Source of the DNA: an uncultured cyanobacterium
Lineage (GTDB): Bacteria > Cyanobacteriota > Cyanobacteriia > Phormidesmidales > Phormidesmidaceae
Direction: 5' to 3'
Assembly (NCBI GenBank): GCA_963793265.1
Contig: CAWBZI010000007.1
Location: 288,001 to 352,000, forward strand
Length of the DNA: 64,000 nucleotides
In this document: piece by piece, positions 30,001 to 33,000 of the stretch
Layout of the letters: the number at the start of each line of letters is the position of its first letter
How positions within the stretch are numbered: the first letter of the stretch is position 1
Made by a program: the position numbers

Positions 30001-33000
30001 TAACGAAATTCCCAACGCCCTTTCTATCGGCGGTATGGTGTTAATAACGGTAGGTGGGGCGCTGGCTATATATCTAGAGCAAAAACCGCAGGTACAAGAA
30101 AGCCGAGGGAACTAAGTGGTCAGCTTAGAACCCCTCAGCGGTTAACCGTCATAGGCAAAATCACGGCAGTAGGGCCGGATTCCTGACGTTTGAGCCGATA
30201 CTTGCAGATTGAGAGATTAAGTCAGCGAGTAGGCGGTTGAGGGCGCTGGTGACGGCGTAGAAGGAGGCTGTGACAATGCTGGTGTGGATGCCAATGCCGT
30301 AGCTAGCGCCTTGGGGCGTCGTGATTTCGATTAGGGCGATCGCCTGACTTTGGCTACCCTTGGGCAGATCGCCCGGACGAGTCGGCAGGGCCATTTTCAG
30401 CGATCGCTCCTCATACCCGCTCACCTGCATTTGGCCGAGGCGATCGCCTAGTTGGCTACCATTCAAAGCCGCTACCAAAGCGTCAATTGGCCCATTGCCT
30501 TCACCTTCTAGCGTATGCTCACAGCCCTCAATCTCGACACAGACCGCTATCTGCGTGCTTCCTGCTTTTGTTGACACGCACTGATGAGAACAGTATGTCA
30601 ACGGCCCGGTAGCTCGAAGATATTCTGCCTTGAAAATCTGCCAAATCACGTCAGCAGTGACCTCTTTCCCACTATCTTCTACGGCCCGCTGCACTATCCG
30701 ACTGAACTCTATTTGCAGCCGTCTAGGAAGCACCACCCCATAATCTCTTTCTAGCAAAAAGGCAATGCCTCCTTTGCCCGACTGACTATTTACCCGCACA
30801 ACAGATTCGTAAGAGCGCCCCATGTCCGCTGGGTCTATGGGTAGGTAAGGAACCGCCCATGTATCTTCAGGCTGTCTTGCAGCAAAGCCCTTTTTGATGG
30901 CGTCTTGATGAGAGCCTGAGAAAGCAGTAAAAACAAGTTCGCCTGAGTAGGGGTGGCGTGAATGAACCGGCAGCTGGGTACAGTCTTGGGCAACTTGAAC
31001 AATGTCGTCTATACGAGAAAAATCTAGACCCGGCGAAATGCCCTGCGTGTACAGATTCATCGCTAGCGTCACCAGATCGACATTTCCCGTCCGTTCGCCA
31101 TTGCCAAATAAGCAGCCCTCTACCCTCTGCGCGCCAGCCATTTGAGCCAGTTCAGCAGCAGCCACGCTACAGCCCCGATCGTTGTGAGGATGCACGCACA
31201 GCACCACGGCCTCGCGGTAGTCAAGGTGGCGATGCATCCATTCCACCTGATCGGCAAAAACATTAGGGGTGGATACTTCTACGCTGGCTGGAAGGTTGAT
31301 GATTGCTTTTGCTGCAGATGTAGGCTGCCACACGGCCAGCACTTCATTGCAAATCGCTTTGGCAAAAGGCAGCTCGGTTGAGGTAAAAACTTCGGGAGAG
31401 TACTGAAATCGCCAGGCGGTTTCATGTTGGGCAGTCGCTAGCTCTTTGATGAGGGCAGCGGCATCGGTTGCTAAGCGAATAGTGCCTGAGCGATCGAGAT
31501 TGAAAACAACTTTTCGGAAGGTGGGCGCAGTGGCATTGTATACGTGAACGATCGCCTGCTTAGCGCCTTTTAGAGATTCAAACGTACGGCGAATAAGGTG
31601 ATCTCTAGCAGGGGTAAGAACCTGTAGCGTGACATCGTTAGGAACTAGATTTTGCTGTATGAGGTGGCGAACAAAATCGAATTCTGTTTGAGAAGCACCA
31701 GGGAAACCGACTTCGATTTCTTTGAAACCAATATTGATCAAGGTGTGGAACAGGCGCAGCTTGCGAGCGATACTCATGGGCTCAATGAGCGCTTGATTGC
31801 CATCACGTAAATCGGTACTGAGCCAGGCTGGCGGCTGCGTGATGGTTTTGCTCGGCCAGGTGCGATCTGCGAGATTAATAGGCGTAAATGCGGCGTACTT
31901 GCTATTTGGTTGAGTCAACATAGGATGGCTGTGAATAATTGTATTGGGGTGGTTTTTGTTTGTGCATAGATGAGGCGGCAGCGATGCAGCGAGTAAGCGC
32001 TAGGTTGAGCGATCGCAGGGTCTAAAACGAATGCAGCCTAGCGGCACAAGGAAGTGAGCCGCAAGAAAATGACTGGTTGTAAAAAAGTAATTATGCGCGC
32101 CCGCGCAGCAGCTTCAGCCCAATAAGGCTAAAGCTAAGCTTGTAGAGAGGTGCAGGCCGCTTGTTCATAGGTCTTTTGCATCGGTAGCCCCATTTAAGCA
32201 CAGACTAAGCATAGGCTGAACGCAAAAAATCTGGGTTTCCAGCATCTAGGTCTGTAGCATACTTATTATCATAAAAACAGACCATCACATCACCGTATTA
32301 TGCACAAACAAACAGTCGTAAATGAGTGCTTTCCTAATACAAAAATGGTCTTCCATTGAGGTTTGTATACTGTTCTTCTAAAAAGAGCGTATAGAGTGCA
32401 CAGATTGATTTTTTGACCTTTTGAGAGTTCTCATGTTTGCTTCAAGCGTTACGGGTGCTTAAAGATACAGGCAATAATAAAATGCTCAGTACCCAGGTTA
32501 AAATTTTTTAGAAGATCCATTATTTATTATGGTAATCGTGTATGCTTCCTTTTATAAACGCAATGGAAGCTTAGACATTGCTCATTCTATTGGTGCTTAT
32601 CTACATTAGAGTTCATAAAAACCTTTCTAACTAAGCAAGCATCGGCGTTTGTGCAGTAAGTAAGGGATTGCAAAGATTGTGATTGGAATGATCTAAAAGT
32701 AAAAAGCATACATTTATTGCAATATCTGCTTTTGCAACTATCTTGTAGAAGGGCGATCTTCTTGAGTTAATTGAGACAGGTTACGTAGAGCTTTAATGAG
32801 TCTGATAGGTTGCTGCTCAATTGTTTAAGTAAGGGTTAGGCTGGCTGTCTACAAGGGATTAAGTTGCTGTTGTGATAAGCGGCCTAATTTATTCGGCTGT
32901 TTTGTGAAAGTTAGATAGGCAAAAGTAGGTGAGCTTAGGAACTCATTGCGTTAGATAGAAGACTTTAGCTTTAGTATCAACGTTTGAAATATAAGCTTGG

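Follow-up and report, generated by a model that had tools for sequence, protein, structure and literature searches.

Upstream of a long-form (type-2) 2-isopropylmalate synthase gene (leuA) in an uncultured cyanobacterium we identified a short, leucine-rich reading frame. It is best interpreted as belonging to the leuL-type leaders, as a cyanobacterial member or variant that is co-inherited with type-2 leuA. A leucine-rich ORF that lies in conserved hairpins and travels with leuA across phyla is probably a built-in leucine sensor, and a role in sensing Leu-tRNA is the most reasonable reading. We give about an even chance to the full proposal, that the leader is translated, acts in cis and senses leucine in the manner of leuL, belongs to type-2 leuA and is inherited with it, and works by attenuation at a small hairpin (P2) and the adjoining U-rich tract. 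The finding brings to light a regulatory feature missing from the annotation, and a second leuA that would be separately controlled.

The window is the whole 64,000-nt stretch of contig that was analysed, and the features located below all lie on its minus strand. The long-form leuA (30161..31921) encodes 586 aa and was identified from its ORF and from matches to NCBIfam models (725 bits to TIGR00970, cut-off 697; 837 bits to NF002991). It is an additional copy, as a second, short-form homologue with 27% identity is encoded on another contig; no leader with a Leu run was found in the region upstream of that gene. The gap ahead of the long leuA (31922 to 33073) is intergenic, and the largest ORF entirely within it has 40 aa. 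The leader ORF, uORF1 (32091..32168; MNKRPAPLYKLSFSLIGLKLLRGRA), consists of 25 codons and a stop, and the stop is 169 nt from the leuA ATG (31921). The first-pass annotation had given this ORF length and spacing, an extra long leuA, a gap free of sizeable ORFs and a Lys codon within the Leu run, all of which are confirmed from the sequence.

The six Leu codons of uORF1 are CUC, CUU, CUU, CUG, CUG and CUG. Isolated Leu codons at positions 8, 11 and 15 precede the Leu run, CUG-AAG-CUG-CUG (codons 18-21, 32106..32117), where congeners have three or four CUG codons. The peptide core is accordingly GLKLLRGRA in the window and GLLLLRGRA in congeners. One hallmark of the classical ribosome-mediated attenuators (trp/leu/his type) is a short, translated leader ORF in which codons for the regulating amino acid are clustered; uORF1 has this form, and its translation is predicted. 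Closer to leuA, a consensus scan returned promoter-like hexamers (TGCACA-17-TACAAT, 31938..31966) with the 3' end 17 nt before the leuA ATG. If real, this promoter would bypass the leader, but the scan gave three sites against 2.7 by chance, so the match is no evidence of function. No Shine-Dalgarno-like purine run was found ahead of the leuA ATG.

Distribution and inheritance of the leader

The core of the leader is a 21-mer. With up to one mismatch allowed, it is present as a single copy in this genome and occurs in 30 of 45 congeners, 23 of which have it exactly and 7 with one mismatch; none of the 127 genomes from other genera contains it, and the reversed 21-mer had no matches. The earlier counts, obtained with a looser pattern, had been 31 of 45 and 1 of 127, and so change slightly, while the empty reversed control is reproduced. 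The 21-mer occurs in 29 of the 31 congeners that have the long leuA, and the LeuA proteins of the congeners that carry it are only 71-78% identical.

An element confined to the genus, as first described, is not what we found. Sequence-diverged leaders precede the long leuA at 38 of 40 further loci of the family (the two misses are contig ends), and the leader is also present upstream of long leuA in other cyanobacterial families. The same leader design occurs before type-2 leuA in beta- and gammaproteobacteria. In a LeuA tree (FastTree, with a midpoint root only), 33 cyanobacterial sequences form one clade beside these beta- and gammaproteobacteria. The distance from leader stop to leuA ranges from 135 to about 840 nt across loci, with no conservation of the spacer. 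Of three model matches obtained across the phylum, one (L176) was judged false, as leuA is not adjacent to it. From sequence comparison, the leader is linked to type-2 leuA across phyla and is best explained as inherited with it. A regulatory leader can apparently stay attached to its own gene through inter-phylum transfer.

The reading frame was assessed at the 75 of 150 leuA upstream regions that contain the core motif. An ATG-initiated ORF spans the motif in the Leu frame in 73 of these, compared with 2 in the +1 frame and 8 in the +2 frame. The Leu-frame ORFs are 10-75 codons long, with in-frame length changes and an ATG start among relatives. The median Leu content is 30%. Of 229 Leu codons at the four positions immediately ahead of P2, 206 are CUG; earlier Leu codons are mixed. 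A Leu-frame ORF this widely kept, in many cyanobacterial genera and in beta- and gammaproteobacteria, and a core like that of corynebacteria make a member or variant of the leuL-type leaders the best reading of the element.

Hairpins and the tract after the stop codon

Two hairpins overlap the end of uORF1. P1 (32110..32135) has 11 bp with arms AGCUUUAGCCU and GGGCUGAAGCU, and its 3' arm consists of the Gly-Leu-Lys-Leu codons. In relatives, the outer pairings of P1 join Gln-type codons to the Leu run. P2 (UGCGC-GGGC-GCGCA, 32094..32107; 5 bp, -7.3 kcal/mol) extends from the UG of the last CUG to the base before the stop. The UAA stop (32093-32091) comes next, within a tract of 20 nt that has no G (32074..32093), with a U6 run (32086-32081) that starts 7 nt past the stem. 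Hairpins over the Leu codons and over the stop, and a U-run, had been proposed for this site, and correspond to P1, P2 and U6.

A plain MAFFT alignment of 46 leaders yielded only three pairs with RNAalifold because loop lengths differ among leaders, and the evidence for structure was taken instead from folds of individual sequences and a covariance-model alignment. A P1a-type hairpin forms in 64 of 70 unique leaders (369 of 1400 shuffles), and a hairpin at the P2 position in 72 of 75 (7.2% of random anchors). Fitted to the covariance model, the alignment has 95.5% of its cells paired and shows changes on both sides in 12 of 17 pairs; none of 500 shuffles matched this, and slid controls reached 17-51%. 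Both-side changes affect 11 of 12 pairs in helices 1-2. Covariation of P2 is slight (1 of 5 pairs), and compensatory variants (UGCCC/GGGCA) exist in two lineages. A covariance model built from another genus (R1) matches the window at 32085..32143 (P1b, P1a and P2; 28.1 bits, E 2.2e-7), and this is its sole match below E 0.1 in the whole 5.7-Mb genome. The G-free tract after P2 has a median length of 18-20 nt in both phyla (1-2 nt in background). Among 59 unique cyanobacterial leaders, 32 have a U-run after P2 (7.6% in background), and the run is weak in some cyanobacterial genera; the proteobacterial tract is CU-rich, with a U-run in one of six. These results support constraint on the leader ORF at the level of both RNA and reading frame, tied to the long-form leuA.

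The covariation would also be expected if the conserved RNA (P1, P2 and the pseudoknot of relatives) were bound by a trans factor, such as a protein or tRNA-Leu, with the frame secondary or incidental. The shift of residues after the run together with the stem (R to P in the UGCCC/GGGCA variants) is consistent with this. Passages of Seliverstov et al. (2005, PMC1262725) propose protein binding to the actinobacterial LEU element and cite Leu-codon mutations that left regulation unaffected. However, the excess of the Leu frame over the other two, its ATG start, the in-frame nature of its length changes and the strong preference for CUG in the run make binding by a trans factor very unlikely. Nor did Rfam point to a known RNA: no family, Leu_leader (RF00512) included, matched window positions 31700-33200 at E<=10, as the first-pass annotation had also reported at E<=0.05, and nothing was found at 15 related loci at E<=1.

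An alternative fold involves the start of the ORF. The strand of codons 3-6 (GCGGCCUGC, 32152..32160) is complementary to the P2 region, and a candidate fold in which the two are paired would exclude P2. The minimum free energy fold of the isolated leader (-34.7 kcal/mol, z -3.5) uses this pairing, and the duplex between these 5' codons and the P2 region has a z of -1.9 in the window. Among 25 unique congener leaders the mean z is -2.05, with 18 below -1.5. Outside the genus (g12) the complementarity is not significant (mean z 0.04). The P2-excluding pairing is a feature within the genus, not general, and not obviously selected by stalling.

Nearer to leuA, relatives have a hairpin and pseudoknot, which are degenerate in the window. 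Weak homology, seen by alignment, pattern scan and the folds of relatives, suggests a remnant of this second module (uORF2 and a 12-bp hairpin) at 32003..32050, where a palindrome (GCGATCGC) occupies what would have been the 3' arm of the hairpin. Module 2 is intact at about 17 of 28 congener loci. Complementarity of module 1 with module 2 or with the leuA start, judged by eye at few loci, was unconvincing.

The loss of module 2, the Lys codon that breaks the Leu run, the promoter-like site 17 nt before leuA and the hydrophobic nature of the uORF1 peptide would all suit a relic in decay that has ceased to control leuA in this genome, or an independent small gene (for the hydrophobic peptide, or for a small RNA ending at P2-U6). 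We consider these quite improbable. The core 21-mer of the window is identical to that of 23 congeners, and the Lys codon AAG is itself base-paired inside the extended 11-bp P1. Broken Leu runs that keep at least two terminal CUG codons are found in several congeners, and module 2 was lost several times within the genus with uORF1 retained. The peptide is not conserved outside its RNA-paired parts, and the promoter match is at chance level.

Proposed working of the leader

The leader RNA would act through four parts: the long helix P1, the CUG run, the small GC hairpin P2, and the G-free, U-rich tract. When charged tRNA-Leu is scarce, a ribosome would stall on the CUG run. Its footprint would cover the 3' arm of P1 and the 5' arm of P2, P2 would be blocked, and RNA polymerase would continue into leuA. 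With ample leucine the run would be free of parked ribosomes, and P2 and the U-tract would form and end or stall a share of transcripts. Within the genus, alternative pairing of the start-proximal codons with the P2 region may provide a second, P2-excluding fold. We infer stalling, the output by termination or pausing, and the direction of that output. The ribosome may occlude P2 directly. Stalling at codons 8, 11 and 15 would leave P2 free.

P2 with U6 is the sole terminator-like signal, and it is weak as a terminator. A lenient terminator scan flags P2, with such sites occurring at chance rate (2 against 1.3), and terminator-like hairpins are not enriched downstream (16 of 75 loci, 13.8 expected). 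Since the ORF crosses P2, a ribosome that reaches the stop would melt P2 too. By our reasoning, we find no timing in which an excess of leucine would terminate more transcripts than starvation does unless an unproven pause of the polymerase is assumed. Cyanobacteria lack Rho, to our knowledge, and we computed its absence for this genome only, where the best match to TIGR00767 scores 26.7 bits (cut-off 509) in an assembly that is 99% complete. A Rho-dependent leader-peptide attenuator of the tna or mgtA type is ruled out here because the genome has no Rho.

The lack of a canonical terminator and of Rho also fits a leucine-sensing leader of the same kind with a post-transcriptional output. In that case a ribosome stalled on the CUG run near the 5' end, or a queue of them, would shield leuA and the spacer, which is long, untranslated and AU-rich, from a 5'-end-dependent RNase, or alter long-range folding. 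leuA mRNA would last longer or be translated more at low leucine, with P2 and the G-free tract serving as a processing or entry site and not as a terminator. Such a mechanism would sidestep the timing problem of co-transcriptional models. It is consistent with the variable distance and unconserved spacer between leader and leuA, which fit an effect independent of distance, and with a G-free single-stranded tract that is conserved in both phyla although U-runs are cyanobacterial only. Transcripts of erm genes, which are stabilised by stalled ribosomes, provide a precedent. We nevertheless hold a post-transcriptional output to be unlikely, as no sequence feature specific to an RNase site was found, and as the corynebacterial relative is described as a transcriptional attenuator in parts of two papers (PMC8709942, PMC5784534).

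A broader proposal, which we offer only tentatively and think will probably not hold, is that the sensor of type-2 leuA is ancient, has moved across phyla, comprises up to two tandem modules, and sets transcript survival or polymerase pausing through leader folding. Each module would consist of a Leu-rich uORF and a hairpin adjoining it, and module 2 would form a pseudoknot. In cyanobacteria without Rho, module 1 would work by itself and with no canonical terminator. Folding of a closed leader, in which the start codon is paired to the end of the ORF together with P1 and P2, would then be governed by the ribosome parked on the CUG run. If true, this would be a kind of leader-peptide control mechanistically separate from the terminator/antiterminator paradigm, and direct evidence that translation is functionally coupled to transcript fate in cyanobacteria. 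We know of little work on transcription-translation coupling in this phylum, and a conserved, single-copy Leu leader offers a compact system in which to test whether the position of a ribosome can determine the fate of a transcript there.

Comparison with described leaders

The full-text literature that we searched describes no leader-peptide control of amino-acid genes in cyanobacteria, in agreement with the first-pass annotation, and reports no cyanobacterial Leu leader; Naville & Gautheret (2010) has nothing on leucine or cyanobacteria. The enterobacterial leu leader (leuL, RF00512) likewise has consecutive Leu codons before leuA and presumed stalling at tRNA-Leu shortage, according to a passage in PMC5314783. 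Its leuA is of a different type from the cyanobacterial long form, and it has a separate 3:4 terminator and 2:3 antiterminator, neither of which is present in the cyanobacterial leader. There, the ORF passes through the sole hairpin, in a host without Rho. This arrangement and the lack of a Leu_leader match set aside the enterobacterial layout to which the element had been assigned. What stands of the ribosome-mediated control proposed with it is a real leader, under constraint and tied to long leuA.

The pyrBI attenuators, in which a leader ORF runs through a canonical terminator hairpin and the signal is polymerase speed (UTP), are similar in geometry, since a translating or parked ribosome would prevent the hairpin; in pyrBI there is no codon-run signal.

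Proteobacterial hosts normally have Rho, and Vitreschak et al. (2004) is said to be the primary paper on their Leu attenuators. Leu attenuators "in other proteobacteria" are mentioned in passages of PMC5314783 and PMC13434334. The type-2 leuA leaders of Paraburkholderia, Burkholderia, Noviherbaspirillum, Methylobacillus, Zoogloea and Acinetobacter share their order of parts with those of cyanobacteria: Gln-type codons near the start, P1, GGN-CUG-CUG-CUG, P2, the stop, and a G-free pyrimidine tract. The CU-rich tails of the proteobacterial leaders are without the U-runs, which appear to have been gained in the cyanobacterial versions.

We regard the corynebacterial leuL, or actinobacterial LEU element, as the nearest described relative, a likeness of design and peptide core with no nucleotide-level homology demonstrated. 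The corynebacterial leader reportedly appears in Neshat et al. (2014). Its peptides MTSRANLLLLRRGGSQRS and MNRANLLLLRRGGSQA are both listed as leu leader peptides, and MTSRANLLLLRRGGSQRS is described as removed to abolish attenuation, in PMC8709942 and PMC5784534. A search of the genome contigs with two patterns back-translated from the whole C. glutamicum leuL peptide gave no match, and a shorter core pattern returned 11 Corynebacterium loci, in which the Leu run lies in the loop of a hairpin formed by its flanking codons.

The corynebacterial leader, too, is located upstream of a long-form (TIGR00970-type) leuA. In both systems, GC-rich codons flanking the run pair together, and a larger hairpin or pseudoknot (in relatives of the window) is found nearer to leuA. 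The cyanobacterial leader is longer (24-28 codons, against 15-18), has the additional covarying helix P1 and, unlike corynebacterial leuL, has codons after the run that fold on themselves as P2. It lies 135-840 nt from leuA, whereas corynebacterial leuL adjoins the leuA Shine-Dalgarno. In the LEU element, as outlined in part of Seliverstov et al. (2005, PMC1262725), a base stem between the Leu-codon run and the leuA Shine-Dalgarno box encloses a pseudoknot. That arrangement is not seen in the window, where the run is at least 185 nt from the leuA ATG. In both, Arg and Gly codons (CGC/GGN) come directly after four Leu codons, giving LLLLRRGG (published as ANLLLLRRGG) in corynebacteria and LLLLRGRA in the congeners. 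The long-unexplained actinobacterial LEU element may in this way be joined to a wider family of leaders.

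A leucine-rich leader upstream of the long-form leuA

We identified a long-form 2-isopropylmalate synthase gene, leuA (586 aa; minus strand, ATG at 31921), whose product matches TIGR00970 with 725 bits (cut-off 697). A short-form leuA homologue with 27% identity to the long form is encoded on another contig of the same genome, and no Leu-run leader was found upstream of it. The interval of 1152 nt between leuA and the divergent gene at 33074 wholly contains no ORF larger than 40 aa. A leader ORF of 25 codons, MNKRPAPLYKLSFSLIGLKLLRGRA (32168..32091, minus strand), ends 169 nt before the leuA ATG. 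The Leu-rich ORF that the first-pass annotation had placed 169 nt upstream of a long leuA is confirmed, and its report of no Rfam match also holds for the window element, at E ≤ 10.

Two hairpins are predicted on the minus strand. P1 (11 bp; 32135-32110) has the Gly-Leu-Lys-Leu codons as its 3' arm, the codon run CUG-AAG-CUG-CUG lies within the leader ORF, and P2 (UGCGC-GGGC-GCGCA; 32107-32094) extends from the UG of the last CUG to the base preceding UAA. A G-free tract of 20 nt, with U6 at 32086-32081, follows 3' of P2. The isolated leader folds at -34.7 kcal/mol (z -3.5), a value equalled by none of 200 shuffles; the 319-nt 5' region has a fold z of -2.3.

The divergent neighbour is a 713-aa ORF (33074-35215, plus strand, listed with a TTG start) without an NCBIfam match at E ≤ 0.001. 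Two ORFs lie 3' of leuA within 28004-30115. Weak matches were obtained for a 319-aa ORF convergent with leuA (TIGR00950, carboxylate/amino acid/amine transporter, far under cut-off) and for a 376-aa ORF downstream of leuA (Rieske/monooxygenase-like).

The 21-mer CTGCTGCGCGGGCGCGCATAA is present in a single copy in its own genome, even with three mismatches allowed. With at most one mismatch, 30 of 45 congeners carry one copy each (23 exact). The other 18 genera, represented by 127 genomes, have none, and the reversed 21-mer gave no matches. Of the 31 congeners with a long leuA, 29 have the 21-mer. The two exceptions are a genome whose one copy has two mismatches and a contig with just 90 nt of sequence ahead of the gene. 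One incomplete congener genome has the 21-mer and no leuA match. Congener LeuA proteins are only 71-78% identical to that of the window, so the invariance of the 21-mer at synonymous positions points to a constraint on the RNA.

Spread, reading frame and structure

The long leuA is present in 99 of 173 family genomes searched (this one included), representing 12 of 19 genera. Upstream DNA was taken from 80 public loci, 29 family-genome loci and 40 further family stretches. Among the 40 further family loci, 38 have a leader ORF of the same design, with the consensus ..QQLSL..L.SLLLGLGLLLRLGR[NK]* or ..GLGLLLRLAHTN*; the other two have upstream sequence of only 441 and 156 nt. Such leaders also occur in Leptolyngbya, Stenomitos and Calothrix records, and in the beta- and gamma-proteobacteria Paraburkholderia, Burkholderia, Noviherbaspirillum, Methylobacillus, Zoogloea and Acinetobacter. 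In a phylum-wide sample of 150 genomes the leader was found in two, both times adjoining a long leuA; a third match was judged false. The element extends far wider than the genus. In a FastTree phylogeny of 108 LeuA proteins, the 33 cyanobacterial sequences form one clade (SH-like support 98). This clade sits beside proteobacteria that bear this leader type, in a midpoint-rooted tree with no outgroup.

A search for the nucleotide motif CT[GA]CTGC[GC]C alone, irrespective of frame, located it in 75 of 150 upstream regions. In 73 of these 75, an ORF of 10-75 codons that starts with ATG crosses the motif in the Leu frame; two have such an ORF in the +1 frame and eight in the +2 frame. Differences in leader length are in-frame. 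Among 71 unique leaders (median Leu content 30%), CUG accounts for 206 of 229 Leu codons at the last four positions before P2, and the 362 Leu codons further upstream are of mixed type (CUA 122, CUG 73, CUU 65, CUC 59, UUG 36, UUA 7). One leader (locus L110, genome G128) is expanded to 55 codons by about four in-frame repeats of a 15-nt unit (LRLSN), and its LLRGRA end is kept.

Of 75 leaders, 72 have a P2-type hairpin (at least 4 bp and at least 3 GC pairs, starting within -3 to +1 of the run end), whereas only 960 of 13,383 random anchors (7.2%) do; the anchor had been set wrongly in two of the three leaders without one. The stem varies: UGCCC/GGGCA is seen in Zoogloea and one cyanobacterium, and some stems have a sixth pair, C-G or U-A. 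A P1a-type hairpin whose end lies 4-18 nt ahead of the run end is found in 64 of 70 unique leaders, compared with 369 of 1400 dinucleotide shuffles, and its stems are diverse (AGCCU/GGGCU, GACCUA/UAGGUC, CAGCUCG/CGAGCUG, AGGCC/GGCCU, CUAGCCCG/CGGGCUAG). In per-sequence folds, start-proximal Gln-type codons (CAGCAG, CAGACC) form outer pairings with GGN-CUG codons.

A covariance model built on ten sequences of another genus scores 28.1 bits on the window element (32085-32143; E 2e-7). Across 94 sources it gives 68 matches at E ≤ 0.005. In the model-fitted alignment, which leans towards the model, pairing holds for 95.5% of cells, and both sides change in 12 of 17 pairs; none of 500 shuffles reaches any of five measures, and slid controls are 17-51% paired. 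Covariation within P2 is slight (one of five pairs). Five identical weak matches elsewhere in the genome (15.6 bits, E 0.26; C1:956909, C1:1634668, C6:2308, C2:470607 and C7:413733) are presumably copies of one repeat unrelated to the leader.

Possible mode of action

The stop codon lies 0-7 nt past P2 in 63 of 72 P2-bearing leaders, within the loop in two and 21-25 nt downstream in six. In two genomes (G115, locus L106, and G145) TAA has become TCA and the ORF is longer by 7 codons; thus, the stop position right after P2 is not absolutely fixed. Median lengths of the G-free tract after P2 are 18 nt (cyanobacteria) and 20 nt (proteobacteria), against background medians of 2 and 1 nt (95th percentiles 12 and 8 nt). 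Of 59 unique cyanobacterial leaders, 32 have at least five U in 6 nt no more than 18 nt from P2, against a background of 7.6%; the same is true of only one of six proteobacterial leaders. Other terminator-like hairpins between P2 and leuA are not enriched (16 of 75 loci, 13.8 expected), and Rho was not found in the genome.

Loci L123-L153 (family genera g12, g7 and g18) share a block, UUUUUUGAAAUAAAGGCR-NNN-YGCCCUGAAUAG, about 15-45 nt 3' of the leader stop. It contains a small covarying hairpin (GGCR/YGCC); alternatively, its AAGGCG could pair with the P2 5' arm, and its GCCCUGAAUAG with the loop and 3' arm of P1.

The usual ribosome footprint reaches 12-15 nt downstream, and with any run codon in the A site a ribosome would span the P2 5' arm and the P1 3' arm. 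Shortage of leucine would stall the ribosome on the run and prevent P2, so that transcription goes on; otherwise, P2 with U6 would end or pause transcripts. The first six codons of the leader, AUG included, show complementarity to P2 and its surroundings in this genus (mean duplex z -2.05, 18 of 25 below -1.5; in the window -17.8 kcal/mol, z -1.9), a signal absent in other genera. The minimum free energy fold of the isolated leader uses this pairing, which may offer an alternative fold that excludes P2.

This proposal has several weak points. P2 is a stem of just 5 bp, and 7 nt separate it from U6, a gap that would fit a pause dependent on the hairpin no less well than a terminator. The leader ORF continues through P2, and the U-run is missing in the proteobacterial relatives. 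Furthermore, we could derive the expected direction, more leuA when leucine is short, from the timing only by assuming that polymerase pauses. On these grounds, we consider it probable that the element is a translated Leu-sensing leader, and regard its action by termination or pausing at P2-U6 as a tentative proposal; for the two taken together, the case is evenly balanced. A post-transcriptional effect, which would share the stalled ribosome, is the main rival and seems unlikely.

A second module and comparison with known leaders

Many relatives have a second small ORF (uORF2) about 60-125 nt upstream of leuA. The congeners encode ..LLSLRL.QGCQ.., and the Oxalobacteraceae and Alcaligenaceae ..LLL.LPIGCRA*. 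The Leu-rich codons of uORF2 adjoin a 9-12-bp hairpin (CAGGGCUGUCAG/CUGACAGCCCUG in congeners), whose loop (UGGCA or GUGGC) can pair with a conserved downstream box (UGCCA or GCCAC), predicting an H-type pseudoknot. The module, which matches no Rfam family, is found at about 1330-1420 of L098 and in other congener loci, and also in L008, L019, L021, L075 and L044. About 17 of 28 congener loci have it intact, and its scatter on the LeuA tree suggests that it has been lost several times in the genus. Only a putative, degenerate remnant is present in the window (32003-32050, minus strand), with the palindrome GCGATCGC in the former 3' arm. Six Oxalobacteraceae loci (L037, L041, L050, L053, L029, L039) have two tandem Leu-rich small ORFs upstream of leuA, the first about 200-300 nt upstream and ending in ..LLLRA, the second about 80-100 nt upstream and ending in ..LPIGC[RL]A.

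Seliverstov et al. (PMC1262725) describe a uORF with a Leu run and a pseudoknot upstream of actinobacterial leuA, and doubt classical attenuation there. By position and design, the second module may be a counterpart of this actinobacterial LEU element. Other papers give the C. glutamicum leuL peptide as MTSRANLLLLRRGGSQRS, a leader removed to abolish attenuation (PMC8709942), give the C. diphtheriae leu leader peptide as MNRANLLLLRRGGSQA (PMC5784534), and mention E. coli leuL and leaders "in other proteobacteria" (PMC5314783, PMC13434334). Full-text searches found no paper on a cyanobacterial leucine leader or on ribosome-mediated attenuation by such an element in cyanobacteria, as judged by title and abstract and, for one paper, by passages of its text.

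The first-pass annotation had read the leader as a candidate leu attenuator of enterobacterial layout, a reading that is partly supported. The conserved Leu-frame ORF upstream of long leuA stands; the element is better not taken for a copy of that attenuator. In 11 Corynebacterium loci, retrieved with a back-translated core pattern, the Leu run lies in the loop of a hairpin formed by the flanking CGCGCG and CGCCGCG codons, and a large hairpin comes next. Window-type leaders and corynebacterial leuL have in common the gene type, an LLLL-Arg-Gly/Arg core and the pairing of GC-rich flanking codons, a likeness in design and peptide core. We would class the element as a cyanobacterial variant among the leuL-type leaders found with type-2 leuA.
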